Source of the DNA: Cryomorphaceae bacterium BACL11 MAG-121001-bin54 | GTDB lineage: Bacteria; Bacteroidota; Bacteroidia; Flavobacteriales; BACL11 | Direction: 5' to 3' | Length of the DNA: 64,000 bases | Assembly (NCBI GenBank): GCA_905182255.1 | Contig: CAJJAH010000001.1 | Span: 345,508 to 409,507, forward strand | Shown here: in pieces, positions 40,453-62,016 of the stretch | How the letters are laid out: every line of letters starts with the position of its first letter | How positions within the stretch are numbered: position 1 is the first letter of the stretch | Made by a program: the position numbers and the translations under genes | Notes under the pieces: generated by a model | Databases searched by the model: none | What the model saw: the letters and a program-made list of their open reading frames with translations, nothing else | Told to the model about the DNA's origin: nothing

Positions 40453-40471
40453 ACTTAGGTCTTAATTTTTA

Positions 40472-41713: not shown

Positions 41714-41718
41714 TCTGT

Positions 41719-42174
41719 TTATTTAAAATTTATTTTAAGTTTAGTCTCTTTTATTTCTTCTTTTGGAATACTTATTTCTTCCAGTATATAATCTTTCCTA
41801 TTTCCTTTTTTCTTTTTTAATACCTCTAGCAACAGTGATTCATTGTAGGAAATAATAACACCTGTTTTTCTCTTACCATTAGTTAATAAAACACCAACCT
41901 CTTTTCCGATATATTTCTGATATTGTTCATCAACCATGAACGGATTATCTAGCCCTGCAGAACAAACAGTAAGCTCATAATCTTCTGACTCTCTATCAAA
42001 ATGTTCCTCAATATATTTACTTATTAGCAAACAATGTTCTACCTGAACTCCTTCCATTCTATCAAAAAATAAAGTAATAACATTTGCTGTATTCACTTTT
42101 ACATCTACTAAGAAGCCACCTTGTTCTTTAATCTTTGGCTCGGCTACTTTTATTATTTCTTCTTTTGATATCAT
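41719..42174 (-). CDS. rimP: Ribosome maturation factor RimP
   Basis: 151 aa. Position immediately upstream of nusA and RimP-like N-terminal pattern. Confidence 0.85.
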   Translation of the reverse strand: MISKEEIIKVAEPKIKEQGGFLVDVKVNTANVITLFFDRMEGVQVEHCLLISKYIEEHFDRESEDYELTVCSAGLDNPFMVDEQYQKYIGKEVGVLLTNGKRKTGVIISYNESLLLEVLKKKKGNRKDYILEEISIPKEEIKETKLKINFK

Positions 42175-42184
42175 AATGCTATGT

Positions 42185-42212
42185 AAAAAAAGAAGAGGCT
42201 AACAGCCTCTTC
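42185..42212 (-). terminator. Strong rho-independent terminator between the giant gene and rimP (may also act as a leader attenuator of rimP-nusA-infB)
   Basis: Minus strand: GAAGAGGC-uguua-GCCUCUUC followed by UUUUUUU. It sits 62 nt after the giant gene stop and 10 nt before the rimP ATG. Confidence 0.8.
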
Positions 42213-42237
42213 CTCTTTACCTATCTAATTTCGTTTG

Positions 42238-42245
42238 CAAATGTA
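42238..42245 (-). promoter_or_regulatory. Putative -7 box (TAnnTTTG) upstream of the terminator hairpin and rimP
   Basis: Minus-strand TACATTTG, 63 nt upstream of the rimP ATG and on the 5' side of the 42185..42212 hairpin. Confidence 0.4.
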
Positions 42246-42273
42246 AGGAGATTTTTTTAATCTCGCAAACCTT

Positions 42274-48200: not shown

Positions 48201-51200
48201 CTATATAAGTCTGTCCATTCCAAGTATAATCATCACACTCTGTAACATCTGTGGATGATAAAGTAGATGGATTTATAGTAAGATTTAATGTCGCTACAGA
48301 ATCACAACCATTTGAATTAGTAGTTGTAAAAGTGTAAACTCCACTAGCTGTATAAGTCTGTCCATTCCAATTGTAATCATCACAAGAAGTTGCAGCTGAT
48401 GTACTAGTTGTTGATGGATTTACAGTAAGATTTAATGTTGCTACAGAATCACAACCATTTGAATTAGTAGTTGTAAAAGTGTAAACTCCACTAGCTATAT
48501 AAGTCTGTCCATTCCAAGTATAATCATCACACTCTGTAACATCTGTGGATGATAAAGTAGATGGATTTATAGTAAGATTTAATGTCGCTACAGAATCACA
48601 ACCATTTGAATTGGTAGTTGTAAAAGTGTAAACTCCACTAGCTGTATAAGTCTGTCCATTCCAAGTATAATCATCACACTCTGTAACATCTGTGGATGAA
48701 ACGGTTGGGTAAAAACAACTACTATCATTTACAGTAGCTGTAGAATCATAGTTACATGCATTAGAATCCGTACAACCCAAGACAATAATATAAGAACATG
48801 AACCATCATCAATTGTAGCCATAGGATCATAATTAACAGCAGCAGAATCTGTACAACCAAGATAAATACAAGAACCATCACTAGTATTTACATTAGGATT
48901 ATAATTACTTGCTGCAGGGTCATTACATCCATATGTAAATGGAACACATGATCCGTCATCAGTATTTACTGATGAGTTATAATTAAATGCAGAAATATCA
49001 GTACAACCATAAATAAATGGTATACACGATCCGTCGTCACAAACTGCGTTAGCATCATAGTTAAATTGAGTAGGGTCAGTACATCCATCAGGTAAATTAA
49101 TTGTAAGATTTAATGTTGCTACAGAATCACAACCATTTGAATTAGTAGTTGTAAAAGTGTAAACTCCACTAGCTGTATAAGTCTGTCCATTCCAATTGTA
49201 ATCATCACAAGAAGTTGCAGCTGATGTACTAGTTGTTGATGGATTTACAGTAAGATTTAATGTTGCTACAGAATCACAACCATTTGAATTAGTAGTTGTA
49301 AAAGTGTAAACTCCACTAGCTATATAAGTCTGTCCATTCCAAGTATAATCATCACACTCTGTAACATCTGTGGATGATAAAGTAGATGGATTTATAGTAA
49401 GATTTAATGTCGCTACAGAATCACAACCATTTGAATTAGTAGTTGTAAAAGTGTAAACTCCACTAGCTATATAAGTCTGTCCATTCCAATTGTAATCATC
49501 ACACTCTGTAACATCTGTGGATGATAAAGTAGATGGATTTATAGTAAGATTTAATGTCGCTACAGAATCACAACCATTTGAATTAGTAGTTGTAAAAGTG
49601 TAAACTCCACTAGCTGTATAAGTCTGTCCATTCCAAGTATAATCATCACACTCTGTAACATCTGTGGATGATAAAGTAGATGGATTTATAGTAAGATTTA
49701 ATGTCGCTACAGAATCACAACCATTTGAATTAGTAGTTGTAAAAGTGTAAACTCCACTAGCCGTATAAGTCTGTCCATTCCAAGTATAATCATCACACTC
49801 TGTAACATCTGTGGATGATAAAGTAGATGGATTAATTGTAAGATTTAATGTTGCTACAGAATCACAACCATTTGAATTAGTAGTTGTAAAAGTGTAAACT
49901 CCACTAGCTGTATAAGTCTGTCCATTCCAATTGTAATCATCACAAGAAGTTGCAGCTGATGTACTAGTTGTTGATGGATTTACAGTAAGATTTAATGTTG
50001 CTACAGAATCACAACCATTTGAATTAGTAGTTGTAAAAGTGTAAACTCCACTAGCCGTATAAGTCTGTCCATTCCAAGTATAATCATCACACTCTGTAAC
50101 ATCTGTGGATGATAAAGTAGATGGATTTATAGTAAGATTTAATGTTGCTACAGAATCACAACCATTTGAATTAGTAGTTGTAAAAGTGTAAACTCCACTA
50201 GCTGTATAAGTCTGTCCATTCCAATTGTAATCATCACAAGAAGTTGCAGCTGATGTACTAGTTGTTGATGGATTTACAGTAAGATTTAATGTTGCTACAG
50301 AATCACAACCATTTGAATTAGTAGTTGTAAAAGTGTAAACTCCACTAGCTGTATAAGTCTGTCCATTCCAAGTATAATCATCACACTCTGTAACATCTGT
50401 GGATGATAAAGTAGATGGATTTATAGTAAGATTTAATGTCGCTACAGAATCACAACCATTTGAATTAGTAGTTGTAAAAGTGTAAACTCCACTAGCTGTA
50501 TAAGTCTGTCCATTCCAAGTATAATCATCACACTCTGTAACATCTGTGGATGATAAAGTAGATGGATTTATAGTAAGATTTAATGTCGCTACAGAATCAC
50601 AACCATTTGAATTAGTAGTTGTAAAAGTGTAAACTCCACTAGCTGTATAAGTCTGTCCATTCCAAGTATAATCATCACACTCTGTAACATCTGTGGATGA
50701 TAAAGTAGATGGATTTATAGTAAGATTTAATGTCGCTACAGAATCACAACCATTTGAATTAGTAGTTGTAAAAGTGTAAACTCCACTAGCTGTATAAGTC
50801 TGTCCATTCCAAGTATAATCATCACACTCTGTAACATCTGTGGATGATAAAGTAGATGGATTTATAGTAAGATTTAATGTCGCTACAGAATCACAACCAT
50901 TTGAATTAGTAGTTGTAAAAGTGTAAACTCCACTAGCTGTATAAGTCTGTCCATTCCAAGTATAATCATCACACTCTGTAACATCTGTGGATGATAAAGT
51001 AGATGGATTTATAGTAAGATTTAATGTCGCTACAGAATCACAACCATTTGAATTAGTAGTTGTAAAAGTGTAAACTCCACTAGCTGTATAAGTCTGTCCA
51101 TTCCAAGTATAATCATCACACTCTGTAACATCTGTGGATGATAAAGTAGATGGATTTATTGTAAGATTTAATGTCGCTACAGAATCACAACCATTTGAAT

Positions 51201-54138
51201 TAGTAGTTGTAAAAGTGTAAACTCCACTAGCTGTATAAGTCTGTCCATTCCAAGTATAATCATCACACTCTGTAACATCTGTGGATGATAAAGTAGATGG
51301 ATTTATAGTAAGATTTAATGTCGCTACAGAATCACAACCATTTGAATTAGTAGTTGTAAAAGTGTAAACTCCACTAGCTGTATAAGTCTGTCCATTCCAA
51401 GTATAATCATCACACTCTGTAGCTGCAGTTGATGATGTAGTTGGAATACATAAACAAACAATAGAAAACGGAAATGCTTGAACATCAATATTTCCTAACT
51501 CAGAATCAACCGTTGAAGTAACTGTTAAAGATCCGGCAGTAGGATTAATAAATACATTAAGAAAGTTAATAGTACTTGAGTTGCCACTAGTAAAATTATT
51601 CCCATCAGCAATAGAAGTAGCTGATATACTAACTCCTGGATTTAAATTGGTAATAGTAAAAGTACCTAAAGCTAATCCAGTAGCTATATCCACAGATTCA
51701 ATAACTGCCTGAGTAGAACCAACTGTTGAAACAACTACCAAAGTAGTATTAACTGTATTAAAGCCTGCACCAGCCATACTACTAGCTGAACCAATAACAT
51801 CTCCAGAAGACATATTTGAAATATCAAAAGAACCTGCATCTGATGTAAATAATGAAGTCAATATATCTACCTCACCAGCATCCTGACTTAAGATAACAGT
51901 TAAATCTGTTAAACTATCACAATCAGTGTTGGAAAGTGAAATTGAAACAGTTGGAGAAAAATCTAAGACTACACAGACAATAGAAAACGGAAATGCTTGA
52001 ACATCAATATTTCCTAACTCAGAATCAACCGTTGAAGTAACTGTTAAAGATCCGGCAGTAGGATTAATAAATACATTAAGAAAGTTAATAGTACTTGAGT
52101 TGCCACTAGTAAAATTATTCCCATCAGCAATAGAAGTAGCTGATATACTAACTCCTGGATTTAAATTGGTAATAGTAAAAGTACCTAAAGCTAATCCAGT
52201 AGCTATATCCACAGATTCAATAACTGCCTGAGTAGAACCAACTGTTGAAACAACTACCAAAGTAGTATTAACTGTATTAAAGCCTGCACCAGCCATACTA
52301 CTAGCTGAACCAATAACATCTCCAGAAGACATACTTGAAATATCAAAAGAACCTGCATCTGATGTAAATAATGAAGTCAATATATCTACCTCACCAGCAT
52401 CCTGACTTAAGATAACAGTTAAATCTGTTAAACTATCACAATCAGTGTTGGAAAGTGAAATTGAAACAGTTGGAGAAAAATCTAAGACTACACAGACAAT
52501 AGAAAACGGAAATGCTTGAACATCAATATTTCCTAACTCAGAATCAACCGTTGAAGTAACTGTTAAAGATCCGGCAGTAGGATTAATAAATACATTAAGA
52601 AAGTTAATAGTACTTGAGTTGCCACTAGTAAAATTATTCCCATCAGCAATAGAAGTAGCTGATATACTAACTCCTGGATTTAAATTGGTAATAGTAAAAG
52701 TACCTGAAGCTAATCCAGTAGCTATATCCACAGATTCAATAACTGCCTGAGTAGAACCAACTGTTGAAACAACTACCAAAGTAGTATTAACTGTATTAAA
52801 GCCTGCACCAGCCATACTAATAGCTGAACCAATAACATCTCCAGAAGACATACTTGAAATATCAAAAGAACCTGCATCTGATGTAAATAATGAAGTCAAT
52901 ATATCTACCTCACCAGCATCCTGACTTAAGATAACAGTTAAATCTGTTAAACTATCACAATCAGTGTTGGAAAGTGAAATTGAAACAGTTGGAGAAAAAT
53001 CTAAGACTACACAGACAATAGAAAACGGAAATGCTTGAACATCAATATTTCCTAACTCAGAATCAACCGTTGAAGTAACTGTTAAAGATCCGGCAGTAGG
53101 ATTAATAAATACATTAAGAAAGTTAATAGTACTTGAGTTGCCACTAGTAAAATTATTCCCATCAGCAATAGAAGTAGCTGATATACTAACTCCTGGATTT
53201 AAATTGGTAATAGTAAAAGTACCTAAAGCTAATCCAGTAGCTATATCCACAGATTCAATAACTGCCTGAGTAGAACCAACTGTTGAAACAACTACCAAAG
53301 TAGTATTAACTGTATTAAAGCCTGCACCAGCCATACTAATAGCTGAACCAATAACATCTCCAGAAGACATACTTGAAATATCAAAAGAACCTGCATCTGA
53401 TGTAAATAATGAAGTCAATATATCTACCTCACCAGCATCCTGACTTAAGATAACAGTTAAATCTGTTAAACTATCACAATCAGTGTTGGAAAGTGAAATT
53501 GAAACAGTTGGAGAAAAATCTAAGACTACACAGACAATAGAAAACGGAAATGCTTGAACATCAATATTTCCTAACTCAGAATCAACCGTTGAAGTAACTG
53601 TTAAAGATCCGGCAGTAGGATTAATAAATACATTAAGAAAGTTAATAGTACTTGAGTTGCCACTAGTAAAATTATTCCCATCAGCAATAGAAGTAGCTGA
53701 TATACTAACTCCTGGATTTAAATTGGTAATAGTAAAAGTACCTAAAGCTAATCCAGTAGCTATATCCACAGATTCAATAACTGCCTGAGTAGAACCAACT
53801 GTTGAAACAACTACCAAAGTAGTATTAACTGTATTAAAGCCTGCACCAGCCATACTACTAGCTGAACCAATAACATCTCCAGAAGACATACTTGAAATAT
53901 CAAAAGAACCTGCATCTGATGTAAATAATGAAGTCAATATATCTACCTCACCAGCATCCTGACTTAAGATAACAGTTAAATCTGTTAAACTATCACAATC
54001 AGTGTTGGAAAGTGAAATTGAAACAGTTGGAGAAAAATCATTAAGATTTTGAGCAATAATTTGATTAGGATTTAATAAAAAACCTAAACAAAAAATTAAC
54101 ATTAAATTTGATAAAATTTGGGTAAAATTTCTTTTCAT
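42274..54138 (-). CDS. Giant repeat-rich T9SS-secreted cell-surface protein (SprB-like adhesin), 3954 aa
   Basis: Single uninterrupted ORF. Signal peptide MKRNFTQILSNLMLIFCLGFLLNPNQIIAQ. In order: 5 x 173-aa repeats; about 22 x 49-aa two-Cys repeats, interrupted by 5 GCTD..NY..DDGSC mini-repeats; 4.8 x 347-aa units of Ig-like, FN3, FN3 and SprB-type repeat (CFGGSDGSLDLSVIGGSGSFSYLWSDGS); one extra FN3. The C-terminus ...LNIYPNPTRGLFNISF...IFMIQIRT...RIVLQ matches the type-A T9SS sorting domain (TIGR04183-like). Confidence 0.9.
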   Translation of the reverse strand: MKRNFTQILSNLMLIFCLGFLLNPNQIIAQNLNDFSPTVSISLSNTDCDSLTDLTVILSQDAGEVDILTSLFTSDAGSFDISSMSSGDVIGSASSMAGAGFNTVNTTLVVVSTVGSTQAVIESVDIATGLALGTFTITNLNPGVSISATSIADGNNFTSGNSSTINFLNVFINPTAGSLTVTSTVDSELGNIDVQAFPFSIVCVVLDFSPTVSISLSNTDCDSLTDLTVILSQDAGEVDILTSLFTSDAGSFDISSMSSGDVIGSAISMAGAGFNTVNTTLVVVSTVGSTQAVIESVDIATGLALGTFTITNLNPGVSISATSIADGNNFTSGNSSTINFLNVFINPTAGSLTVTSTVDSELGNIDVQAFPFSIVCVVLDFSPTVSISLSNTDCDSLTDLTVILSQDAGEVDILTSLFTSDAGSFDISSMSSGDVIGSAISMAGAGFNTVNTTLVVVSTVGSTQAVIESVDIATGLASGTFTITNLNPGVSISATSIADGNNFTSGNSSTINFLNVFINPTAGSLTVTSTVDSELGNIDVQAFPFSIVCVVLDFSPTVSISLSNTDCDSLTDLTVILSQDAGEVDILTSLFTSDAGSFDISSMSSGDVIGSASSMAGAGFNTVNTTLVVVSTVGSTQAVIESVDIATGLALGTFTITNLNPGVSISATSIADGNNFTSGNSSTINFLNVFINPTAGSLTVTSTVDSELGNIDVQAFPFSIVCVVLDFSPTVSISLSNTDCDSLTDLTVILSQDAGEVDILTSLFTSDAGSFDISNMSSGDVIGSASSMAGAGFNTVNTTLVVVSTVGSTQAVIESVDIATGLALGTFTITNLNPGVSISATSIADGNNFTSGNSSTINFLNVFINPTAGSLTVTSTVDSELGNIDVQAFPFSIVCLCIPTTSSTAATECDDYTWNGQTYTASGVYTFTTTNSNGCDSVATLNLTINPSTLSSTDVTECDDYTWNGQTYTASGVYTFTTTNSNGCDSVATLNLTINPSTLSSTDVTECDDYTWNGQTYTASGVYTFTTTNSNGCDSVATLNLTINPSTLSSTDVTECDDYTWNGQTYTASGVYTFTTTNSNGCDSVATLNLTINPSTLSSTDVTECDDYTWNGQTYTASGVYTFTTTNSNGCDSVATLNLTINPSTLSSTDVTECDDYTWNGQTYTASGVYTFTTTNSNGCDSVATLNLTINPSTLSSTDVTECDDYTWNGQTYTASGVYTFTTTNSNGCDSVATLNLTINPSTLSSTDVTECDDYTWNGQTYTASGVYTFTTTNSNGCDSVATLNLTVNPSTTSTSAATSCDDYNWNGQTYTASGVYTFTTTNSNGCDSVATLNLTINPSTLSSTDVTECDDYTWNGQTYTASGVYTFTTTNSNGCDSVATLNLTVNPSTTSTSAATSCDDYNWNGQTYTASGVYTFTTTNSNGCDSVATLNLTINPSTLSSTDVTECDDYTWNGQTYTASGVYTFTTTNSNGCDSVATLNLTINPSTLSSTDVTECDDYTWNGQTYTASGVYTFTTTNSNGCDSVATLNLTINPSTLSSTDVTECDDYNWNGQTYIASGVYTFTTTNSNGCDSVATLNLTINPSTLSSTDVTECDDYTWNGQTYIASGVYTFTTTNSNGCDSVATLNLTVNPSTTSTSAATSCDDYNWNGQTYTASGVYTFTTTNSNGCDSVATLNLTINLPDGCTDPTQFNYDANAVCDDGSCIPFIYGCTDISAFNYNSSVNTDDGSCVPFTYGCNDPAASNYNPNVNTSDGSCIYLGCTDSAAVNYDPMATIDDGSCSYIIVLGCTDSNACNYDSTATVNDSSCFYPTVSSTDVTECDDYTWNGQTYTASGVYTFTTTNSNGCDSVATLNLTINPSTLSSTDVTECDDYTWNGQTYIASGVYTFTTTNSNGCDSVATLNLTVNPSTTSTSAATSCDDYNWNGQTYTASGVYTFTTTNSNGCDSVATLNLTINPSTLSSTDVTECDDYTWNGQTYIASGVYTFTTTNSNGCDSVATLNLTINPSTLSSTDVTECDDYNWNGQTYTASGVYTFTTTNSNGCDSTATLNLIINPSAFSVNNQTICFGYSYSINGNTYSSSGTYFDIYTTNLGCDSTVTTILTILPDFSVTVQNPTGGSPICLGESVTLSMTSWSPSGSIYQWNDLSGAISGATSSTYTTSVAGTYSLTVTNPAGCIATSSATTINVISLSPPTGLSVSNIQLDRATMNWSAVTDAHHYNIRMRVQGTSSWSIALNYLYGTSKEKLNLTSSTTYEWEIQSVCSSDNSSVSAWSSTESFTTTIPCTTPLNTTTTAIGLTDATLGWDVSPGALEYIVRYKQVNQGWGTFTYDTINTNSLVLSSLLSGTAYHWQVKSVCDGSGNNNSAFSSFEVFNTGSCNASLNIIQTNVGCFGGSDGSLDLSVIGGSGSFSYLWSDGSTSEDLTSLAAGTYSVTVTDNNTCQYTATYVITTPASAFSVTVQNPTGGSPICLGESVTLSMTSWSPSGSIYQWNDLSGAISGATSSTYTTSVAGTYSLTVTNPAGCIATSSATTINVISLSPPTGLSVSNIQLDRATMNWSAVTDADHYNIRMRVQGTSSWSIALNYLYGTSKEKLNLTSSTTYEWEIQSVCSSDNSSVSAWSSTESFTTTIPCTTPLNTTTTAIGLTDATLGWDVSPGALEYIVRYKQVNQGWGTFTYTTVTTNSLDLSSLLSGTAYHWQVKSVCDGSGNNNSAFSSFEVFNTGSCNASLNIIQTNVGCFGGSDGSLDLSVIGGSGSFSYLWSDGSTSEDLTSLAAGTYSVTVTDNNTCQYTATYVITTPASAFSVTTQNPTGGSPICLGESVTLSMTSWSPSGSIYQWNDLSGAISGATSSTYTTSVAGTYSLTVTNPAGCIATSSATTINVISLSPPTGLSVSNIQLDRATMNWSAVTDAHHYNIRMRVQGTSSWSIALNYLYGTSKEKFNLTSSTTYEWEIQSVCSSDNSSVSAWSSTESFTTTIPCTTPLNTTTTAIGLTDATLGWDVSPGALEYIVRYKQVNQGWGTFTSTIVTTNSLDLSSLLSGTAYHWQVKSVCDGSGNNNSAFSSFEVFNTGSCNASLNIIQTNVGCFGGSDGSLDLSVIGGSGSFSYLWSDGSTSEDLTSLAAGTYSVTVTDNNTCQYTATYVITTPASAFSVTTQNPTGGSPICLGESVTLSMTSWSPSGSIYQWNDLSGAISGATSSTYTTSVAGTYSLTVTNPAGCIATSSATTINVISLSPPTGLSVSNIQLDRATMNWSAVTDAHHYNIRMRVQGTSSWSIALNYLYGTSKEKLNLTSSTTYEWEIQSVCSSDNSSVSAWSSTESFTTTIPCTTPLNTTTTAIGLTDATLGWDVSPGALEYIVRYKQVNQGWGTFTYTTVTTNSLDLSSLLSGTAYHWQVKSVCDGSGNNNSAFSSFEVFNTGSCNASLNIIQTNVGCFGGSDGSLDLSVIGGSGSFSYLWSDGSTSEDLTSLAAGTYSVTVTDNNTCQYTATYVITTPASAFSVTVQNPTGGSPICLGESVTLSMTSWSPSGSIYQWNDLSGAISGATSSTYTTSVAGTYSLTVTNPAGCIATSSATTINVISLSPPTGLSVSNIQLDRATMNWSAVTDAHHYNIRMRVQGTSSWSIALNYLYGTSKEKLNLTSSTTYEWEIQSVCSSDNSSVSAWSSTQSFATLTVCTTPTNTNTTAIGLTDATLGWDVSPGALEYIVRYKQVNQGWGTFTYTTVTTNSLDLSSLLSGTAYHWQVKSVCDGSGNNNSAFSSFEVFNTVNGCIPPTNIIIDSITTSSAVLSWDSNPAAFTYRLMYLVVGAPWNTRIDTTITPGLNNLTLTGLISNENYRFRIRTICDPSVNYNSAWTGWDTVTTLAGNRITAGDIDLGEYLNIYPNPTRGLFNISFMAEKLDNFEITIVDAFGKLVFQEDKQDFIGEYTKRIDFSNSPRGIFMIQIRTRNSFVSKRIVLQ
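42853..47823 (-). repeat. Tandem array, period 1041 nt (347 aa), about 4.8 copies
   Basis: Identical antisense ORFs in the track at 44063, 45104, 46145 and 47186 are spaced exactly 1041 nt apart. Protein units begin FSVT(V/T)QNPTGGSPICLGESV. The copies are identical at nearly all positions, with the few differences confined to short patches. Confidence 0.95.
47824..48708 (-). repeat. Tandem array, period 147 nt (49 aa), about 6 copies (the last is diverged)
   Basis: Units PSTLSSTDVTECDDYTWNGQTYTASGVYTFTTTNSNGCDSVATLNLTIN. The final unit is diverged: PSAFSVNNQTICFGYSYSINGNTYSSSGTYFDIYTTNLGCDSTVTTILTIL. Confidence 0.9.
48709..49095 (-). repeat. Five degenerate Cys/Asp-rich mini-repeats of about 25 aa (GCTDxxAxNYDxxAxxDDGSC)
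   Basis: LPDGCTDPTQFNYDANAVCDDGSC / IPFIYGCTDISAFNYNSSVNTDDGSC / VPFTYGCNDPAASNYNPNVNTSDGSC / IYLGCTDSAAVNYDPMATIDDGSC / SYIIVLGCTDSNACNYDSTATVNDSSC. Conserved at protein level, not at nucleotide level. Confidence 0.85.
49096..51447 (-). repeat. Tandem array, period 147 nt (49 aa), 16 copies
   Basis: The marker ggatttatagtaagatttaatgtcgct recurs at 50417 and 50564 (spacing 147). 2352 nt divided by 147 gives 16. Two sequence types alternate irregularly: TLSSTDVTECDDYT and TTSTSAATSCDDYN. Confidence 0.95.
51452..54039 (-). repeat. Tandem array, period 519 nt (173 aa), 5 copies
   Basis: The marker atagaaaacggaaatgcttgaac occurs at 51461 and 51980 (spacing 519). Protein units DFSPTVSISLSNTDCDSLTDLTVILSQDAGEVD...FPFSIVCVVL differ by only 1 to 2 residues per copy. 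Confidence 0.95.
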
Positions 54139-54228
54139 AATATTTTTTTTAATACTTGTTTTGATACTTTTTTTGATACTTTTTTTATAGCATTATTTGT
54201 CGTAATAACAATATAATTTGCGAATATA

Positions 54229-54236
54229 CAAAATTA
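54229..54236 (-). promoter_or_regulatory. Putative -7 box (TAnnTTTG) for the giant gene
   Basis: Minus-strand TAATTTTG, 90 nt upstream of the ATG at 54138. Confidence 0.4.
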
Positions 54237-54615
54237 TTTAATTATCGAGGGTGTATTACTCAGCATTCTAATAATATTTTAAAAAAATTCTCGTCATTTT
54301 TAAGCTGCAAACTCTTAAAATAAATCAATATCGAAATAATGTTCTGAAAAAACCTATAGCTAAAATTTTTATCATACGCTAAACAAAGCAGATGCAAATA
54401 AAACTACACTTTAAAACTAATAGATAGACATTTATAAAACCTAAAAACAATAGTATTAAAGAGTTGAAGAATTGTAATTATAACTTAATACAAGAAAATA
54501 AATTCTGATAATTAGAACTCCTAAAGATGAAATAATGAAAAAAATAGGTGATTTACAATGAATATTTACTGAAGTATTTACGCATACATTAGTTGTTGGT
54601 CCAATTTGTAAAAAG

Positions 54616-54688
54616 TTGACCGACTAGGGCTCGAACCTAGACTCTTCTGCACCAAAAGCAGACGTGTTGCCAGTTACACCATCGGTCA
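54616..54688 (-). tRNA. tRNA-Gln (anticodon UUG)
   Basis: Manual fold of the reverse complement: TGACCGA TG GTGT AACTGGCA ACAC G TCTGC TTTTGGT GCAGA AGAGT CTAGG TTCGAGC CCTAG TCGGTCA A. It has a 7-bp acceptor stem with the U1-A72 pair typical of bacterial tRNA-Gln, a TTCGAGC T-loop and anticodon TTG. CCA is not encoded. Confidence 0.9.
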
Positions 54689-54831
54689 ATATACAAATTG
54701 GTCGGCAAAAATAACAATTAAGTAAGAAGTACAAAATAATTTCTCATTTTTTCGTTATTAATAAAATCAAGACAGAAATCAATAATTAATTTTATACATT
54801 CGCCATTCTAACAAAAAAGTACTATTTAAAG

Positions 54832-57800
54832 ATGAATCAATTCAAAAAACTAAATAATATTATTGGATGGAGCGTATTTTTAATCGCCTCATTTGTTTAT
54901 CTATCCACTATTGAACAAACCGTAAGTTTTTGGGATTGTGGCGAGTATATTGCAACGGCATATAAATTACAAGTTGGACATCCTCCTGGAGCTCCATTAT
55001 TTCAGTTATTTGGCAGAATTTTTACGCTTTTTGCAGCTCAAGGAACTTCTGAAGTAGCAGTTGCTATCAATATTCTATCCGCATTGTGTTCCTCATTTAC
55101 TATTCTATTTCTCTTTTGGACGATTACAGCCTTTGGAAGAAAGATGTTTTTTAAAGACAATAATTATGAAACGGGTAAAATATATGCTGTTTTAGGAAGT
55201 GGGCTTGTAGGAGCTTTAGCTTACACTTTTTCTGATTCTTTTTGGTTCTCGGCTGTTGAGGGAGAAGTTTATGCCATGTCATCCTTTTTTACAGCAATAA
55301 CCTTTTGGTGCATTATGAAATGGGAGCAGGAAGCTGACCAACCTTTAGCGAGCAGATGGCTTGTTTTGATTGCTTACTTAATAGGGCTTTCAGTTGGGGT
55401 GCATTTATTATCCTTACTTACAATCCCTGCAATGGGAATGATTTACTATTACAAAAAATACCAATATACTAAGTCAGGAGCAATAAAAGCATTCGTCATT
55501 TCAATGATGATATTAGGCTTAGTTCAGGCTGTTATTATTCCAGGTGCCGTAAGTTTAATTTCTACTTTTGAGTTGTTTTTTGTAAATACAATAGGTTTGC
55601 CATTTAATTCCGGAACTATTATTTATTTCCTTTCAGTGATAGTTGCTATTGCATTCGGATTATCTTACACTAAGAAACACAATAAAGCAGTTTGGAATAC
55701 AGTAATATTAGGAGTTATGATGTTACTAATAGGGTATTCATCATTCGCAATTTTAGTTGTCCGATCCAATGCAAATCCTCCTATTGACGAGAATAATCCT
55801 GAAGATGCAGTCGGACTTTTATCCTATTTAAAAAGAGAACAATATGGAAGCTGGCCGATCGTTTACGGGCAACATTTTAATGCAAAATTAGATAGTAAAA
55901 AACCATATTTAGATGGGAATCCTGTATATGCAAAAGATGAAAAGAAAGGGAAATATGTTGTAATAGACAAGAGGAAAAATACACTTCCAAATTACAGCAA
56001 AAAAGATAAAATGTTTTTTCCAAGAATTTGGAGTAATACCCAAGCTAGACATGCGGGAGGCTATGTAAGTTGGGCGGGTCTTAAAAACAAAGATGCAAAA
56101 CCTACTTTTGGTCAAAACCTAACCTATTTTTTCAAATACCAAATTGGGTGGTCCTATATTCGTTATTTTATGTGGAATTTCACTGGAAGGCAGAATGATT
56201 TTATGAATATGGATGGAAATTCCTTAAAAGGAAACTGGGAAAGTGGAATAGGATTTATTGATAATGCTAGATTAGGAACACCTTCAGCAGAAGTAGATGT
56301 GCCGGATTATTTAGGGAAAAATAAAGGTAAAAATCATTATTATTTTCTCCCTCTAATTTTAGGATTAATTGGAATGTTCTTCCACTTTAAACAGAACAAT
56401 CAAGATGCCTTGACTGTTTTATTATTTTTCTTATTTACTGGAGTCTTAATTATCATTTATTTAAACGTGGTACCATTTCAACCTAGAGAGAGGGATTATG
56501 CCTATGTAGGTTCTTTTTATGCCTTTGCAATCTGGATAGGAATGGGTGTTTTAGGAATCTATGATTTTTTAAGTAAAAGAATGAGTTCGTCTGCAAGTGC
56601 AGCTTCAGCCACTATTATAGCACTTATTATCCCAACAATAATGGCAGCTGAAAATTGGGATGATCATGACAGAAGTGGAAGGTTTACAGCTTTAGAGGTT
56701 GCAAAAAACTACCTCAACTCTTGTGATAAAAATGCTATATTATTTACAAATGGTGATAATGATACTTTCCCACTTTGGTATGCACAGGAAGTAGAGGGAA
56801 TACGAACAGATATTAAAGTGGTTAATTTATCTTTGTTCAATACTCCTTGGTATATTGATCAAATGAAAAGAGCATCTTATGATGCAGCTCCTATACCATC
56901 ATCATTAGAACATGATGATTACAGGGCCGGAACAAGAGATTATACTCCAATAAATGAACGATTTAAAGATTATGTTGAAGTAAAAGATGTCGTAAATTTT
57001 ATTAACAGTAAAAGTTCAAAAGCTAAGATCAATACTTCAGCAGGACTAAGAAGCTACTGCCCTACTAAAAAACTAAAGCTTTCGGTTAACAAAAAAAATG
57101 TAAAATCATTTATTCCTAAAGAATATCATGAGAAAATTGTAGATGAAATAAAATTCAAATTAAAAGGAAATGGGCTTTATAAAAATAAATTAATGGTGCT
57201 GGATATTTTGGCTAACTTCAATTGGGAGCGCCCTATATATTTTGCTATTACTGTAGGAAGAGACAACTTTATGGGCTTAGAAAAATACTTTCAGTTAGAA
57301 GGTCTGGCATATAGACTTGTCCCGTATGTAGCTCAATCTCCTGATGGACAAACAGGAGTTGTACATGCTGAAAAAATGTATGAAAGATTAGTTGAAAATT
57401 TTAAATGGGGAGGATTCAATAATCCTGATTTATATTTTGATGAAACCAATACTAGAATGGTAATGAATTTCAGAAATAATTATTCCCGTTTAGCAGAAGC
57501 TTTATTGACTAAAGGTGACACTGCTAGGGCAATTGAAACATTAGATAAATGTATGGCAGAATTTCCAAGAGATGTAGTTAACTTAAGTTATTTTTCATTA
57601 CCAATTATTGACATCTATTACAAGTTAGGAGAAGATAAAAAAGCAAAAAAAGTACTAGCATTAATGATTGATGATTACTTAACTGAAATTAAATACTTAA
57701 AAGAGTTTGAAAGCGGAAGTGGGCTAAAGCAGAACATAGGAATAGCAGGGCAAGTACTTAGCAGTTTAGGTAGGGTGATTCAGATTCATAAATTAGAGGA

Positions 57801-57927
57801 TTTATCATTTACCTATACTAATCAAGAAGGAATCTATTACAAAAGTAACGGAGATAATAAAGTAGAAATTGATTATGAAACTTATCGCATCAATACTTTT
57901 ATGGACGACTATTTAAGCATTCAATAA
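54832..57927 (+). CDS. DUF2723 domain-containing membrane protein (GT-C fold glycosyltransferase-like, TMEM260-related) with a C-terminal TPR-like region
   Basis: 1031 aa. N-terminus ...VSFWDCGEYIATAYKLQVGHPPGAPLF and about 11 or more TM segments match my memory of Bacteroidota DUF2723 proteins. Large soluble C-terminal domain with helical repeats. Confidence 0.7.
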   Translation: MNQFKKLNNIIGWSVFLIASFVYLSTIEQTVSFWDCGEYIATAYKLQVGHPPGAPLFQLFGRIFTLFAAQGTSEVAVAINILSALCSSFTILFLFWTITAFGRKMFFKDNNYETGKIYAVLGSGLVGALAYTFSDSFWFSAVEGEVYAMSSFFTAITFWCIMKWEQEADQPLASRWLVLIAYLIGLSVGVHLLSLLTIPAMGMIYYYKKYQYTKSGAIKAFVISMMILGLVQAVIIPGAVSLISTFELFFVNTIGLPFNSGTIIYFLSVIVAIAFGLSYTKKHNKAVWNTVILGVMMLLIGYSSFAILVVRSNANPPIDENNPEDAVGLLSYLKREQYGSWPIVYGQHFNAKLDSKKPYLDGNPVYAKDEKKGKYVVIDKRKNTLPNYSKKDKMFFPRIWSNTQARHAGGYVSWAGLKNKDAKPTFGQNLTYFFKYQIGWSYIRYFMWNFTGRQNDFMNMDGNSLKGNWESGIGFIDNARLGTPSAEVDVPDYLGKNKGKNHYYFLPLILGLIGMFFHFKQNNQDALTVLLFFLFTGVLIIIYLNVVPFQPRERDYAYVGSFYAFAIWIGMGVLGIYDFLSKRMSSSASAASATIIALIIPTIMAAENWDDHDRSGRFTALEVAKNYLNSCDKNAILFTNGDNDTFPLWYAQEVEGIRTDIKVVNLSLFNTPWYIDQMKRASYDAAPIPSSLEHDDYRAGTRDYTPINERFKDYVEVKDVVNFINSKSSKAKINTSAGLRSYCPTKKLKLSVNKKNVKSFIPKEYHEKIVDEIKFKLKGNGLYKNKLMVLDILANFNWERPIYFAITVGRDNFMGLEKYFQLEGLAYRLVPYVAQSPDGQTGVVHAEKMYERLVENFKWGGFNNPDLYFDETNTRMVMNFRNNYSRLAEALLTKGDTARAIETLDKCMAEFPRDVVNLSYFSLPIIDIYYKLGEDKKAKKVLALMIDDYLTEIKYLKEFESGSGLKQNIGIAGQVLSSLGRVIQIHKLEDLSFTYTNQEGIYYKSNGDNKVEIDYETYRINTFMDDYLSIQ

Positions 57928-57932
57928 TAAAC

Positions 57933-58544
57933 TTGTTTATTACAACACCAAAATTTATACAAGCACTCTTTCCTTCATTAATTTGGAGGATGGAGACACA
58001 AGATAAAAGAATATGGCTTACATTTGATGATGGACCAAGCCCTCAAGTTACCCCATGGATTTTATCTGTTTTAAAAAAAGAAAATGTTAAAGCTACTTTC
58101 TTTTTACTTGGACAACAAATAGAAGAATTTCCTAAATTAACAGATGCTATTGTTAAAGACGGTCATACTATAGCTAATCATTCATATTCTCATAAAAACG
58201 GATGGCTTACCAATAAAGGAAAGTATTTAGAAGACATAGAAAGTTGTCAAGAATTAATGCCTAACAATAAATTATTCCGACCACCTTACGGTAAAATTAC
58301 CAAATCACAAATTGCAGTACTCAAAAAAAAATATAAAATCATTCTATGGGACGTTCTTAGTTATGATTTTCAGCAAAATACAAGTGCTGAAAGAGTGCAA
58401 GAAAATATTATAAAAAATACTAAAGCAGGATCAATAATAGTATTACACAACAACACGATGAGTTTTAAAAATATTTACCCAATACTTGCAAAGACTATTC
58501 AGCAATTAAAAAAAGAGGGCTATAGTTTTAGTGCTACTTGGTAG
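57933..58544 (+). CDS. Polysaccharide deacetylase family protein (NodB homology domain)
   Basis: 203 aa. TFDDGP, H.YSH and RPPYG motifs. TTG start 5 nt after the DUF2723 stop, so probably co-transcribed. Confidence 0.85.
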   Translation: MFITTPKFIQALFPSLIWRMETQDKRIWLTFDDGPSPQVTPWILSVLKKENVKATFFLLGQQIEEFPKLTDAIVKDGHTIANHSYSHKNGWLTNKGKYLEDIESCQELMPNNKLFRPPYGKITKSQIAVLKKKYKIILWDVLSYDFQQNTSAERVQENIIKNTKAGSIIVLHNNTMSFKNIYPILAKTIQQLKKEGYSFSATW

Positions 58545-59310
58545 CAATGCAAAAGTGATCTAAGCACTCAGTTTTAGAAGAACATATTGAATAGTCGGAA
58601 TAGACAAGAGAGTTTACAATTCCTTTATTAGCATCCTGCAAACTGTTTCGGTTAAATCTATTTAAGATATCATAAGGTATCTGCAACAACCATCTAGGCA
58701 ACCAGTATTGAAAATTTAGAATATCAAAACGAGTAATTTTACGAACAGATTCTTTATTTTTATTATAATAATCCATTACCTTATCATTCCCAAAAACACC
58801 TTTCAACTCATATTTATCAAATGAAGTTTTAAGTATTCCCCTCATTTGTTCAGGATTATATTCACGTATATGCCAAGGGTTTCTAGTTAAGGACATCATA
58901 CTATTTGGAGTTGTCAAAATCACCTTGCCTTTTGGCTTTAATACCCTATAGATTTCTTTCAAAAACATTTTATCGTCCTTAATATGCTCAATCACTTGAA
59001 AGGTAACTACAAAATCAATACTATTATCTTTAATCTCTTTTAAAGGAGGTACTTGCGTTTTAATAAATGTAATATTATTTGCTTTCTTTAACTCATCACT
59101 AATTTCAGTATTATACTTATCAACTGCAATATAATTATCTGCTTTAGGAGCTAACTCCATAATCCCATACCCCTCCCCGCTGCCTATTTCAAGTACAGTT
59201 CCACTAATTAATTTAGCAGCTTCTTTATAAGCTATTAAGTGTCTTTGATAAATAACATTTTCAGAAGGGTCTAGATGTGAACTTCTTTCAGCTGTCTGTA
59301 ATATTCCCAT
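58534..59310 (-). CDS. Class I SAM-dependent methyltransferase
   Basis: 258 aa. VLEIGSGEGYG SAM-binding motif. Its 3' end overlaps the convergent deacetylase gene by 11 nt. Confidence 0.8.
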   Translation of the reverse strand: MGILQTAERSSHLDPSENVIYQRHLIAYKEAAKLISGTVLEIGSGEGYGIMELAPKADNYIAVDKYNTEISDELKKANNITFIKTQVPPLKEIKDNSIDFVVTFQVIEHIKDDKMFLKEIYRVLKPKGKVILTTPNSMMSLTRNPWHIREYNPEQMRGILKTSFDKYELKGVFGNDKVMDYYNKNKESVRKITRFDILNFQYWLPRWLLQIPYDILNRFNRNSLQDANKGIVNSLVYSDYSICSSKTECLDHFCIATK

Positions 59311-59330
59311 TTAATTAATTTTGAAAGCTG

Positions 59331-59338
59331 CAAATATA
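59331..59338 (-). promoter_or_regulatory. Putative -7 box (TAnnTTTG) for the methyltransferase gene
   Basis: Minus-strand TATATTTG, 20 nt upstream of the ATG at 59310. Confidence 0.45.
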
Positions 59339-59344
59339 AGAAAT

Positions 59345-60109
59345 CTAATCTGCTAACTCTACAAGGACAGGGCAATGGTCAGAATGCTTAGCTAAAGGCA
59401 AAATATTTGACTTCTTTAATTTAGGCAAAAGAGTGTTAGAAATCATGTTATAGTCAATACGCCATCCCAAATTTTTGGCTCTTGAATTTGCCCTGTAACT
59501 CCACCAACTATAATTATGTGGATCAGTATTTAAATATCTAAAAGAGTCTACAAAACCACTAGCAAGAAATTGACTTACCCAATCTCTTTCTTCAGGCAAA
59601 AATCCTGATGAATTTTTGTTAACTTTAGGATTATGAATATCAATTTCAGCATGACAAATATTATAATCTCCCGAAATAATTAGGTTTGGAATTATCTTTT
59701 TTAATTCCATAATATAATTGTTAAATAAAGACAAAAACTCAATTTTAAAAGCTTGCCTTAAAGGATTACTTCCTGAAGGAAAATAAACACTAAGAACAGA
59801 AAAGCCTTCAAAATCTGCTCGTATCACTCTGCCTTCAAAATCAATTTTTTCAATACCACAACCATACTCAACATGCTTAGGTTTCATTTTTGACAAGATA
59901 GCAACGCCGCTATACCCAGGTTTTTCAGCAGATTTGATAAAACAATTGTATCCCAAATCATTAAAGATAGCTTCATCAAATTGTTCGGGCTTTGCTTTAA
60001 TTTCTTGCAAACATAAAATATCTGCATTTACAACTTTTAACCATAAAGGCAATCCCTTTTTAATAGCAGCCCTAATTCCGTTAACATTATATGTAATTAT
60101 AGTTGGCAT
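59345..60109 (-). CDS. xth: Exodeoxyribonuclease III
   Basis: 254 aa. YNVNGIRA, LCLQE.K, GDYN and SDHCPV motifs of the EEP/ExoIII family. Confidence 0.92.
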   Translation of the reverse strand: MPTIITYNVNGIRAAIKKGLPLWLKVVNADILCLQEIKAKPEQFDEAIFNDLGYNCFIKSAEKPGYSGVAILSKMKPKHVEYGCGIEKIDFEGRVIRADFEGFSVLSVYFPSGSNPLRQAFKIEFLSLFNNYIMELKKIIPNLIISGDYNICHAEIDIHNPKVNKNSSGFLPEERDWVSQFLASGFVDSFRYLNTDPHNYSWWSYRANSRAKNLGWRIDYNMISNTLLPKLKKSNILPLAKHSDHCPVLVELAD

Positions 60110-61015
60110 TTATCTTAGCTTGAAGTCTAAATGAGCGGCAATACTCCCCTCAATTATTAAATTAACATGATATGCACCTGCTGATAACACCTGCACTCTT
60201 TCCCACTCAAAACAATGTGTCATTTCAATATTTTTATACTCAAATTCAGCAGAACTTGTACAGCTATATGTTGAGTCAGCAACATTAGTTGTAAGAATAT
60301 TAGTTCCCAAAACTAATTCTCCGCTTCCATCAATAACTTGCAAATAAATAGTCTTTATTTCTGAGTCAGAAATCTGGTTGGCAGAAACTGAAAAACAAGT
60401 TCTAATTTTCTGTACTTTTTTAGCATATCTAGTTGCAAATTCTCTTCCTGTACTCCTGTAGCGAATAGTTTCAATTTTAGCATCAAACACCTCTAAAATA
60501 GCACCTTTACTTACTTTTTCTTCTAACTTCTTATTTTTCTTATTTAGCTTATAATTCTTCCAGTTTATATCCTTATTTACTTTTACAACACTATCTTTTT
60601 CTAAAACCAGTACACCATTCAAAACTAATAAAGAATCAATATTTGCTAAATATCGTTTTGATATATCCTTAAGAGCTGCAATTTTTTTCCTTGCCTCGTC
60701 TAAATCACTTTTTGTTCTTATAAGGTTTCTAATTTCAGCAATTTGATCCTGAATAACAGAATCTTTTTCATACAATTGTTCATTCAAATCTCCATATTCA
60801 TCTAACAAATCATCATGATCATCAATCAAATCATCCAGCTCGTCCCGCAACATGTTTTTTTGCTCAATAAATTGAACTTTTAATTGCATTTGCTGTTCCA
60901 TTCTATTCTGTTGAAAAAAAAGAGAAATAATAAGTAAAATAACAATTCCTATAAATAGAATAATTATTTTTCTAGCAGTTGAGTTTGACCATAATTCTTT
61001 AATTTTATCCATCAT
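60110..61015 (-). CDS. Hypothetical membrane-anchored coiled-coil protein with a C-terminal beta-rich domain
   Basis: 301 aa. One TM segment (IIILFIGIVILLIISLFF) and an acidic coiled coil. Its stop codon directly abuts the xth ATG. Confidence 0.45.
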   Translation of the reverse strand: MMDKIKELWSNSTARKIIILFIGIVILLIISLFFQQNRMEQQMQLKVQFIEQKNMLRDELDDLIDDHDDLLDEYGDLNEQLYEKDSVIQDQIAEIRNLIRTKSDLDEARKKIAALKDISKRYLANIDSLLVLNGVLVLEKDSVVKVNKDINWKNYKLNKKNKKLEEKVSKGAILEVFDAKIETIRYRSTGREFATRYAKKVQKIRTCFSVSANQISDSEIKTIYLQVIDGSGELVLGTNILTTNVADSTYSCTSSAEFEYKNIEMTHCFEWERVQVLSAGAYHVNLIIEGSIAAHLDFKLR

Positions 61016-61016
61016 G

Positions 61017-61301
61017 TTATTTTATAGTTTCATTACCAACTATATCTACAGACTTAGCTTTTTCATTCAAATAATTTATGTTTAACTCTGAAAGCATTTC
61101 ATCTAAAACTTTCACAATTTCATCTGTAATGTTTCCCTTTGTTTTAACTTTAAGCATTTCCATCAAATCAATAGTTTGACTTACATATTCTAAATTACGA
61201 CTTACCTTTCCTGTTGGGTCAGCAATTTTTCCTAGACCCTGCATAGCAGAAGTGTGGAACATATAAATTAATTGCATTAAAAGCTGATCATTTTTTTCCA
61301 T
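61017..61301 (-). CDS. DUF1844 domain-containing protein
   Basis: 94 aa. LIYMFHTSAMQGLGKI.DP.TGK pattern as I recall for DUF1844. Confidence 0.6.
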   Translation of the reverse strand: MEKNDQLLMQLIYMFHTSAMQGLGKIADPTGKVSRNLEYVSQTIDLMEMLKVKTKGNITDEIVKVLDEMLSELNINYLNEKAKSVDIVGNETIK

Positions 61302-61305
61302 ATTT

Positions 61306-62016
61306 TTATTTAAATACTTTTAGTAAAAGTTCTGAAGTTCTAGCCTTGGGATTACTTCTAATTTCCTTCTCTTGATTAGAGATAAGCACAAAAATACCAT
61401 CAATTGTTTTATTAGTCACATAATCCTCCAAATCAGGATTTACTGATTTAGTGAAAGGAATTGTATTATAAGAATTTACCAATGGATTCCAATATTTTGT
61501 AACCTCAACTTGCTGAATAGCTTTTTTGGCTATTGGCTTTATTTTATTGTACAGCTTTACACTTATTTGTTTTTTTAAATAAGAAGTTGCAGCTGTATTT
61601 CCACCTTTTAAAATCTGTAATGCATCTTTAATATTCATAGCATTAATGGCTTCAACAAAAATAACTAATACCTCCTTAGAGGCCAATTCAGCTGCTGAGT
61701 TTATGCTCTTTTCAAATTCCTTAATTTGTGATTGCATACCTGCCTTTTTCAAGGTTTTTTTCATTTTTTCGGCCTCATCAGGAAAAGGAATACGAATAAG
61801 TATATTATTATAAAACCCTCCCTTTACTGACGAATTCTTAACAGCTTTATTAGCCCCAATAACTAAAGCTTCCTTTAACCCTTTGGACACTTCATCTTTA
61901 TTAGCAGAAGTTGAAAGTAACGCACTAGATTTGGTACTAGCAATTTTCAATAAATCTATTTGTGCTAAACAAGGATGAGACACAATCAATAGTAGAGCTA
62001 AAAATATGAATTTCAT
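61306..62016 (-). CDS. DUF4197 domain-containing secreted protein
   Basis: 236 aa. Signal peptide, then GLKEAL.IGA..AV...S..GGF..N..IRIPFP pattern. Confidence 0.6.
   Translation of the reverse strand: MKFIFLALLLIVSHPCLAQIDLLKIASTKSSALLSTSANKDEVSKGLKEALVIGANKAVKNSSVKGGFYNNILIRIPFPDEAEKMKKTLKKAGMQSQIKEFEKSINSAAELASKEVLVIFVEAINAMNIKDALQILKGGNTAATSYLKKQISVKLYNKIKPIAKKAIQQVEVTKYWNPLVNSYNTIPFTKSVNPDLEDYVTNKTIDGIFVLISNQEKEIRSNPKARTSELLLKVFK

Follow-up and report, generated by a model that had tools for sequence, protein, structure and literature searches.

A TMEM260-family glycosyltransferase gene and a CE4 deacetylase gene form a conserved pair in Bacteroidota, with a hypervariable adhesin gene as a probably incidental neighbor

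The genes considered here lie in a 64,000-nucleotide stretch (hereafter, the window) of the genome of Cryomorphaceae bacterium BACL11 MAG-121001-bin54 (contig CAJJAH010000001.1). In this window, a gene for a 1031-aa multi-pass membrane protein of the DUF2723 family is followed by a gene for a NodB-type deacetylase and is transcribed divergently from a gene for a giant type IX secretion system (T9SS) adhesin. The original prediction combined these genes with a converging methyltransferase gene into a dedicated module that glycosylates the adhesin before its export. Our analysis leads to a different view. We consider it probable that positions 54832 to 58544 hold a two-gene operon of the Bacteroidota core genome, encoding a GT-C glycosyltransferase of family GT117 and a cytoplasmic CE4 deacetylase with a general role, and that the adjacency of the adhesin gene is incidental. 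The prediction had itself allowed for a general role of DUF2723 genes, and this caveat proved to be the better reading.

The GT-C enzyme and its deacetylase partner

The DUF2723 gene is a bacterial member of an already known family (GT117/PF11028). Its product matched Pfam PF11028 (Protein O-mannosyl-transferase TMEM260-like) over residues 35-212 with E=1.3e-76 and 256.9 bits (cut-off, 24.2). In addition, its homologs have the precomputed domains PF11028, PF28497, and PF28495 (TMEM260_2), and some of them are already named "protein O-mannosyl-transferase family" by NCBI. Human TMEM260, a protein O-mannosyltransferase of the endoplasmic reticulum that is selective for IPT domains and was traced via the DUF2723 model, is classified in CAZy GT117 (PMC10214176), and its cryo-EM structures are available as PDB 9RQL/9RQM/9RQN (bioRxiv 10.64898/2026.03.17.711096). 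The activity that the prediction had ascribed to TMEM260 was correct according to both sources. In searches of all PDB sequences, human TMEM260 (9RQL) was the sole match, with E=2.9e-13 for the single sequence (phmmer) and E=2.7e-22 for a profile of 70 homologs; no other glycosyltransferase was matched in the PDB sequences by either approach.

The alignment extends to residues of known importance. TMEM260 activity requires D52 and H67, and D441 adjoins the acceptor Thr in the luminal Rossmann-like palm (bioRxiv 10.64898/2026.03.17.711096). D35 (FWDCGEY) of the 1031-aa protein aligned with D52 and H50 (GHPPG) with H67, while a second aligned stretch (query residues 563-680 to chain residues 362-479) placed N640-G641-D642 opposite R439-G440-D441. 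D35 and H50, like D642 the counterparts of these TMEM260 residues, showed no variation across two sets of diverse homologs (70 and 80 sequences), and G641, D642, N643, and D644 were invariant in the 70. Likewise invariant across the phylum were R311, R398, R444, R552-E-R-D-Y556, H612, and R614.

The structure was modeled with AlphaFold2 (AF2) from an alignment of 80 diverse database homologs, which gave a predicted local distance difference test score (pLDDT) of 84.9 and a predicted template-modeling score (pTM) of 0.84; a model from an alignment of 10 close relatives gave a pLDDT of 39 and was discarded. The best Foldseek matches of the model were all GT-C enzymes, namely STT3, Pmt1-Pmt2, PglB, AglB, ArnT, Pmt4, and ALG9/12 (probability, 1.00). 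The modeled domains comprise a membrane core, an insert of ~190 aa (residues 315-505), and three further transmembrane (TM) helices, followed in the C-terminal part by an alpha/beta Rossmann-like domain (613-860), TPR-like helices (861-990, with helix pairs at 871-985), and a small beta-meander. Pfam matches to TPR_6/14/19/8 at residues 884-948 were all under their cut-offs. As in TMEM260, a GT-C membrane core would be followed, on the noncytoplasmic side, by a Rossmann-like domain and by helices resembling TPRs. Conservation also declines as in TMEM260; it is highest in the membrane core (56%), lower in the alpha/beta domain, or palm (47%), and lowest in the TPR region (27%). Lys5 and Lys6 are located at the N-terminus, which homology to the cryo-EM structures of TMEM260 would place in the cytoplasm, with the FWDCGEY...GHPPG loop and the C-terminal domains at the periplasmic side. 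The periplasm-facing GT-C enzyme that had been proposed is supported by PF11028, by the residues shared with TMEM260, and by the predicted GT-C fold.

The likeness to TMEM260 has limits. The bacterial protein is 1031 aa long, as opposed to 707 aa for TMEM260, and the model has an extra periplasmic insert of ~190 aa (DUF8416 in newer Pfam) as well as a C-terminal beta-meander and helix. Moreover, the carrier would be undecaprenyl-phosphate rather than dolichyl-phosphate, and the bacterial gene has a conserved CE4 partner. The top structural matches PMT/POMT (GT39), STT3, PglB, and AglB glycosylate proteins noncytoplasmically from polyprenyl-linked donors, but PMT/POMT and the oligosaccharyltransferases resemble the model in fold alone (TM-score, 0.25-0.5; 8-12% identity), with no sequence or profile match, and their soluble domains are MIR or oligosaccharyltransferase specific, whereas those modeled here are Rossmann-like and TPR-like.

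The adjacent gene encodes a 203-aa protein that matched PF01522 (Polysacc_deac_1) with E=4.4e-31 and 107.8 bits (cut-off, 23.1), and the CE4 catalytic motifs LTFDDGP, NHSYSH, and FRPPYG are present in its translation. TFDDGP is kept in the aligned N-terminal part of 33 deacetylase orthologs, which also share a conserved N-terminal extension of ~20 residues (P..FP..WR) lacking hydrophobic signal character. The nearest solved structures are peptidoglycan GlcNAc deacetylases of the PgdA/PdaB type (5o6y, E=1.5e-32); the protein fell under the cut-off of every NCBIfam equivalog and had no match to the ArnD model. Neither a signal peptide nor a TM helix was found in the 203 residues.

Across the phylum, the GT-C enzyme has at least 8000 homologs among the database matches, and two exact heptapeptides matched at least 600 species-level genomes (one genome per species). 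From the one-genome-per-species scan, we analyzed 78 independent loci (cited by L numbers), in which genes were called crudely. A deacetylase gene lay near DUF2723 in 33 of the 78 loci, a number that the tblastn threshold may undercount, and directly 3' on the same strand in 32 of the 68 loci with at least 1 kb of downstream sequence. In 22 of the 33 loci, the two genes, which are 5 nt apart in the window, either overlap (by up to 52 nt) or are separated by no more than 13 nt; frequently, the stop codon of the first overlaps the start codon of the second. The pair spans Flavobacteriales, Bacteroidales/Marinilabiliales, and one Chlorobiota-labeled metagenome-assembled genome (MAG). Indeed, clustering of the neighboring open reading frames (ORFs) revealed the deacetylase as the only strongly recurrent neighbor (33 loci), every other family being limited to at most 10 of the 78 loci (purD, 10; DUF6427, 9; rimP, nusA, and infB, 8 each). 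Otherwise, the neighborhoods have a housekeeping character (for instance, purD, radC, and thioredoxin), and no recurrent GT2 synthase or other glycosylation gene family was found near DUF2723 in the 78 loci.

The deacetylase is therefore a real conserved partner of the GT-C enzyme, but the periplasmic tailoring of adhesin sugars that had been assigned to it did not hold, since an enzyme lacking a signal peptide cannot tailor sugars on an exported adhesin in the periplasm. We also considered a VimE-like role in the T9SS anchor sugar; with no vimA or wbp genes among the neighbors, it was kept only as a minor rival.

Additional observations concern the surroundings of the pair. In a set of Marinilabiliales/Bacteroidales loci (L007:13051-17693, L030, L043, L016, L020, L050, L080, and L014), DUF2723, with or without the deacetylase gene, is followed by purD and DUF6427, the latter a membrane protein with ~9 predicted TM helices. 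A NodU/CmcH-type carbamoyltransferase gene comes after purD/DUF6427 in three of the Marinilabiliales/Bacteroidales loci. With NodB-like and NodU-like genes near a GT-C gene, a larger cluster for sugar tailoring might be present. Some Bacteroidales have paralogs, as seen in MAG JARGGF01 (isolate C14-25) with its two differing DUF2723 homologs on separate contigs (L022 and L051), which matters for any knockout design.

The adhesin gene as a neighbor

The original prediction had named a lack of conserved synteny between DUF2723 genes and repeat adhesins as a refuting result, and no conserved synteny was found. T9SS C-terminal domains (CTDs) were detected with hidden Markov models seeded from Pfam-confirmed examples. 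Within ±10 kb of DUF2723, 37 of the 841 gene slots held cargo genes (4.4%); the share was 4.4% for position -1 (3/68) and 4.3% for the two adjacent positions, ±1 (6/140). These counts are approximate because the CTD model drifted in later rounds (types A and B merged; one NusA match removed). The comparison of slots beside DUF2723 with those elsewhere gave a Fisher odds ratio of 0.97 (p=1.0). Giant or CTD-bearing genes near DUF2723 at single loci looked suggestive, i.e., an Ig-like gene of >2886 aa in L007, a reprolysin-CTD gene in L019, SprB/CHU_C genes in L039 and L006, and SprA in L012, and they were set aside as equal to the background rate. Large cargo genes directly beside DUF2723 do occur (L019 and L039), at this same rate. 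The translocon gene sprA in L012 (L012:1-6137), from one Bacteroidales MAG, lies four genes 5' of DUF2723 and is consistent with chance.

Among close relatives, L001 (complete genome, 2.1 Mb; DUF2723 protein identity, 83%) has infB-nusA-rimP, tRNA-Gln, and DUF2723-deacetylase, followed by the convergent methyltransferase-xth-DUF8429-DUF1844-DUF4197 genes; the adhesin gene is absent from its slot, and all flanking genes are kept. The 143-nt region from the tRNA to DUF2723 is highly conserved among the window, L002, and the adhesin-less L001, so the region upstream of the GT-C gene is the same with or without an adhesin. Together with the lack of cargo enrichment across the 78 loci, these results speak against a module dedicated to the adhesin.

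The slot itself is highly changeable. In other relatives (77-92% identity), it holds a T9SS adhesin of 2134 aa in L086 (DUF2723 86% identical), an adhesin of ~1634 aa plus fragments in L088, and adhesins of 604-1521 aa, with scaffold gaps, in L002-L005. Genomes with 80-97% identity in the flanking genes (window, L002-L005, L028, L086, and L088) differ in adhesin length between 0 and 3954 codons, and metagenome assemblies break or collapse at the slot, leaving runs of N and frameshifted fragments. Near-identical repeat units of 147 nt and 519 nt in the adhesin gene probably drive rapid expansion and contraction. Within this genus-level clade, the interval from rimP to tRNA-Gln is a hypervariable site for adhesin genes. 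The L086 slot contains two more genes between rimP and the adhesin gene (L086:900-3225), one for a 478-aa membrane O-acyltransferase of the MBOAT family and one of 299 aa; they represent another type of variable cargo and may act as a pair in surface O-acylation.

The junction around the slot is shared far more widely. tRNA-Gln also lies directly upstream of DUF2723 in L001, L002, L004, and L028, and the same arrangement with rimP-nusA-infB beyond it is found in Bacteroidales (L035, L045, L055, L074, and L083) and Flavobacteriaceae (L082 and L085). Counting the 78 loci, 7 have infB-nusA-rimP upstream of DUF2723 in divergent orientation, as do all close relatives, and an eighth locus (L009) has the opposite orientation. 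As the tRNA-Gln/rimP junction is common to several orders, it is most likely older than the adhesin gene, and the ancestral arrangement appears to be infB-nusA-rimP-tRNA-Gln transcribed away from DUF2723-deacetylase. The lineage of the window apparently inserted a hypervariable T9SS adhesin gene into this neighborhood, and such a lineage-specific insertion, not function, would account for the positional link between adhesin and GT-C enzyme.

Two side observations relate to this region. The tRNA-Gln(ttg) gene is co-oriented with and directly upstream of rimP-nusA-infB in several orders (window 41719..54688; L001:9180-9857). The metY-rimP-nusA-infB operon of E. coli likewise begins with a tRNA. 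In the window, the 12-kb adhesin gene splits the tRNA from rimP, inside this apparently ancestral tRNA-led operon. Furthermore, a PorP/SprF gene, paired with a small SprB/CHU_C-type T9SS cargo gene, occurs in relatives ~6-8 kb 3' of the GT-C/deacetylase pair (L002:19279-21413; L086:19339-21398; window ~63.4-64.0 kb), so the short region has two independent cargo loci, which shows the density of such genes.

The adhesin has a signal peptide. Pfam matched six fn3 domains and a CTD (Por_Secre_tail) in it, and its tandem units are 173 aa and 49 aa long. Its 27 C-D-S sites (5 CDSLTD with period 173, 20 CDSVATL with period 49, and 2 CDST) are copies of two or three repeat units. Counting all D[ST][AILMTV] sites yields 33, of which the N-terminal half holds 26 and the C-terminal half 7, so the count of C-D-S sequons and the N-terminal concentration given in the prediction were accurate. 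Sites of the Bacteroidota type are thus present, but they do not exceed the expectation from composition: a composition shuffle of this protein (16% Thr, 15% Ser, and 6% Asp) gave 31.9 ± 5.2 sequons versus the 33 observed, and the L086 ortholog has 19 versus 14.7 ± 3.6 expected. The D-(S/T)-x motif is of low specificity, and the general system is expected to accept any exported carrier as a substrate (PMC12871550, PMC8729774). As a Sec-exported protein, the adhesin counts among these carriers, and its chance-level number of sites says nothing about a special relationship with the GT-C enzyme.

The element G-C-D-S-x-[AS]-T-L-N-L is retained in the diverged 49-aa units of the L086 ortholog. It is a conserved repeat element for which a structural role fits as well as a glycosylation role. 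Unlike TMEM260 acceptors, the adhesin of the window has neither an IPT/TIG Pfam domain nor the TMEM260 acceptor signature P-x5-P-x3-G-P-x2-[GA]-G-G-x2-[TS], and even the [GA]GGxx[ST] core of the latter was not found in it.

Gene map and the converging methyltransferase

An ORF map and ARAGORN confirmed the coordinates, orientations, and spacings on which the prediction was built, and Pfam confirmed its family assignments (DUF2723, NodB-type deacetylase, S-adenosylmethionine [SAM] methyltransferase, and T9SS fn3 adhesin). The features are listed in Table 1. The spacer of 693 nt between the adhesin and GT-C genes (54139..54831) contains tRNA-Gln(ttg) and no ORF of >45 aa. The remaining genes of the window are housekeeping genes, namely alaS, secA, dnaJ, infB, an EPSP-synthase-family gene, and ABC transporters, and neither further glycosylation genes nor a linked GT2 synthase for an undecaprenyl-phosphate (Und-P)-sugar was found in the 64 kb.

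Table 1. Features around the GT-C/deacetylase gene pair (window coordinates)
Feature	Position	Strand	Size and basis
GT117/TMEM260-like (DUF2723) GT-C glycosyltransferase gene	54832..57927	+	1031 aa; ORF map and Pfam
CE4/NodB-type deacetylase gene	57933..58544	+	203 aa, TTG start; ORF map and Pfam
Class I SAM methyltransferase gene	58534..59310	-	258 aa; Pfam Methyltransf_11/23
Giant T9SS adhesin gene	42274..54138	-	3954 aa; Pfam and repeat/sequon positions
tRNA-Gln(ttg)	54615..54688	-	ARAGORN
5' region of GT-C gene, tRNA to ATG	54689..54831	.	143 nt; kept in window, L002, and L001
infB-nusA-rimP housekeeping operon	37843..42174	-	NCBIfam matches to IF-2, NusA, and RimP
Convergent operon DUF4197-DUF1844-DUF8429/8428-xth-methyltransferase	62016..58534	-	Gene spacings 4, 1, 0, and 34 nt

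The 258-aa protein is a class I SAM methyltransferase (Methyltransf_11, E=1.3e-16) whose gene converges on the deacetylase gene with an 11-nt overlap. The converging orientation had thus been described correctly, but the gene is not part of the module, because it is the last gene of the convergent xth operon and is not conserved at this place outside close relatives; we therefore rejected the methyltransferase as a module partner. More specifically, it adjoins the pair only in relatives that are at least 79% identical, a methyltransferase-like gene is located elsewhere in the distant loci L021 and L037, and the family was not among the recurrent neighbors of the 78 loci. The protein has no export signal. 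The rest of the operon (59345..62016, minus strand) encodes an odd mix of a DUF4197 protein, a DUF1844 protein, a DUF8429/DUF8428 protein, and exonuclease III, which is kept in all close relatives. The DUF8429/DUF8428 protein has one N-terminal TM helix and a coiled-coil-like acidic region.

Possible functions of the pair and their significance

By homology to TMEM260, the GT-C enzyme would take a monosaccharide from a polyprenyl-phosphate carrier (undecaprenyl-P-hexose) and move it to Ser/Thr of extended Sec-exported polypeptides, which the periplasmic Rossmann-like and TPR domains would hold. The pairing of the genes suggests that the cytoplasmic deacetylase most likely acts earlier in the same pathway, on the cytoplasmic side, where an N-acetyl-sugar precursor linked to a nucleotide or a lipid would be its substrate. 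The pair would not exist for the sake of the adhesin, which may be just one of numerous substrates. Several points weigh against this general reading. TMEM260 residues R264/Y267 of the donor-loading loop and R355 of TMH10 are not alignable by sequence to the 1031-aa protein, where identity beyond the two aligned stretches is too low, and the TPR region is the least conserved part (27% identity), which would permit lineage-specific acceptors. A mannose donor needs no deacetylase, so the sugar may not be mannose, and about half of the loci lack the deacetylase gene, meaning that the pairing is frequent and not obligatory. A literature search gave no biochemical or genetic data on any bacterial DUF2723/GT117 member. 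Finally, the slot is usually occupied by an adhesin in the genus-level clade (77-97% identity), where a lineage-specific functional link between adhesin and GT-C enzyme may exist.

In the dedicated module of the prediction, the GT-C enzyme, deacetylase, and methyltransferase would O-glycosylate and tailor the neighboring T9SS adhesin in the periplasm before export. The adjacent, divergent position of the adhesin gene, its usual presence in the slot of these relatives, and the motif retained in the diverged L086 units speak for it, as do the reports that TMEM260 glycosylates beta-sandwich domains (PMC10214176) and that certain species O-glycosylate their T9SS cargo (PMC10897501, PMC8729774). 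We nevertheless regard this explanation as highly improbable, given that L001 keeps the pair and every other neighbor without the adhesin, that DUF2723 attracts no excess of T9SS cargo in the 78 loci, and that the tRNA-Gln/rimP junction most likely predates the adhesin gene. In addition, the sequons are not enriched, the TMEM260 sequon and the IPT/TIG domain are absent from the adhesin, the methyltransferase belongs to another operon, and neither it nor the deacetylase carries an export signal.

The GT-C gene has a single conserved partner, the closely coupled gene of a deacetylase without a signal peptide, and in this respect the pair resembles the Arn/Flm/Lgm systems. ArnT/ArnD and LgmB/LgmC represent the same kind of GT-C plus de-N-acylase pairing. 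A further case is FlmK/NaxD, where the de-N-acylase has no export signal either; NaxD, a CE4 enzyme, acts on the lipid-linked donor and deacetylates Und-P-GalNAc before GalN joins lipid A (PMC10927774). By analogy, the CE4 enzyme would de-N-acetylate, at the cytoplasmic face, an Und-P-HexNAc made elsewhere, and after flipping, the GT-C enzyme would move the amino sugar to a nonprotein acceptor of the envelope, such as lipid A, the lipopolysaccharide core, or another glycan. ArnT is indeed among the structural matches. However, the sequence kinship is with TMEM260 (GT117) only, not with ArnT/PMT_2 (GT83), and the enzyme keeps the Asp of the Rossmann-like palm and the TPR-like domain, both of which bind the peptide acceptor in TMEM260 (bioRxiv 10.64898/2026.03.17.711096). 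The deacetylase, for its part, is not ArnD-like by NCBIfam and is nearest to PgdA/PdaB-type enzymes. No ArnC-like GT2 gene is linked to the pair or recurrent in the 78 loci, and the three-component set (GT-C, CE4, and GT2 together) was not encountered there. Taken together, we judge a role of this type to be a serious but unlikely alternative. It is still less likely that the deacetylase is functionally unrelated and merely co-transcribed, serving a VimE-like or peptidoglycan-precursor pathway, while the GT-C enzyme alone acts as a protein O-mannosyltransferase using Und-P-Man. Such a separation would agree with the loci that lack the deacetylase, with their otherwise housekeeping neighborhoods, with the dispensability of a deacetylase for mannose transfer, and with the case of VimE, from which a use of cytoplasmic CE4 enzymes in other sugar pathways of the phylum is evident (PMC7468200). 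Against it stand the breadth of the pairing from Flavobacteriales to the Chlorobiota-labeled MAG, often with overlapping stop and start codons, and a neighbor signal that is by far the strongest (33 loci versus at most 10 for any other family).

The general role that we favor for the pair raises the question of protein O-glycosylation in Bacteroidota, whose core enzymes are still unidentified (PMC12871550; bioRxiv 10.64898/2026.07.27.740950). A 2025 review describes the core machinery, the oligosaccharyltransferase (OTase), and the ligase as undiscovered and the pathway as resembling eukaryotic O-mannosylation; the general O-glycan has a conserved reducing-end mannose. YfhO is an in-silico candidate for the general O-oligosaccharyltransferase, put forward in a July 2026 preprint and reported there as absent from P. 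gingivalis (bioRxiv 10.64898/2026.07.27.740950), a species that O-glycosylates (PMC8729774). The GT117 enzyme belongs to a different protein family but shares with YfhO a polytopic GT-C-like architecture, a phylum-wide distribution, a core-genome context, and a remote likeness to protein O-mannosyltransferases, both being predicted candidates only. It is a speculative idea, to which we assign a low probability, that the GT117 enzyme, possibly with its CE4 partner, is one missing core enzyme of this system. In its most attractive form, the enzyme would add the reducing-end mannose to D-(S/T)-x from undecaprenyl-P-mannose and would replace or complement the postulated en-bloc OTase. The weakness of the idea is that mannose transfer leaves the deacetylase partner unexplained.

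Collectively, our findings indicate that a private glycosylation kit for one giant adhesin is a reading that should be dropped, and they make a hypervariable adhesin slot a clear case in which "guilt by adjacency" fails. They define a conserved bacterial GT117 plus CE4 gene pair, GT117 being the family of a human congenital-heart-disease enzyme. The general O-glycosylation system of Bacteroidota, with mannose as its linking sugar, was described more than 15 years ago, yet its core transferase, OTase, and ligase are still to be found, and a phylum-wide TMEM260 homolog would be the obvious, if doubtful, alternative or additional candidate to YfhO.

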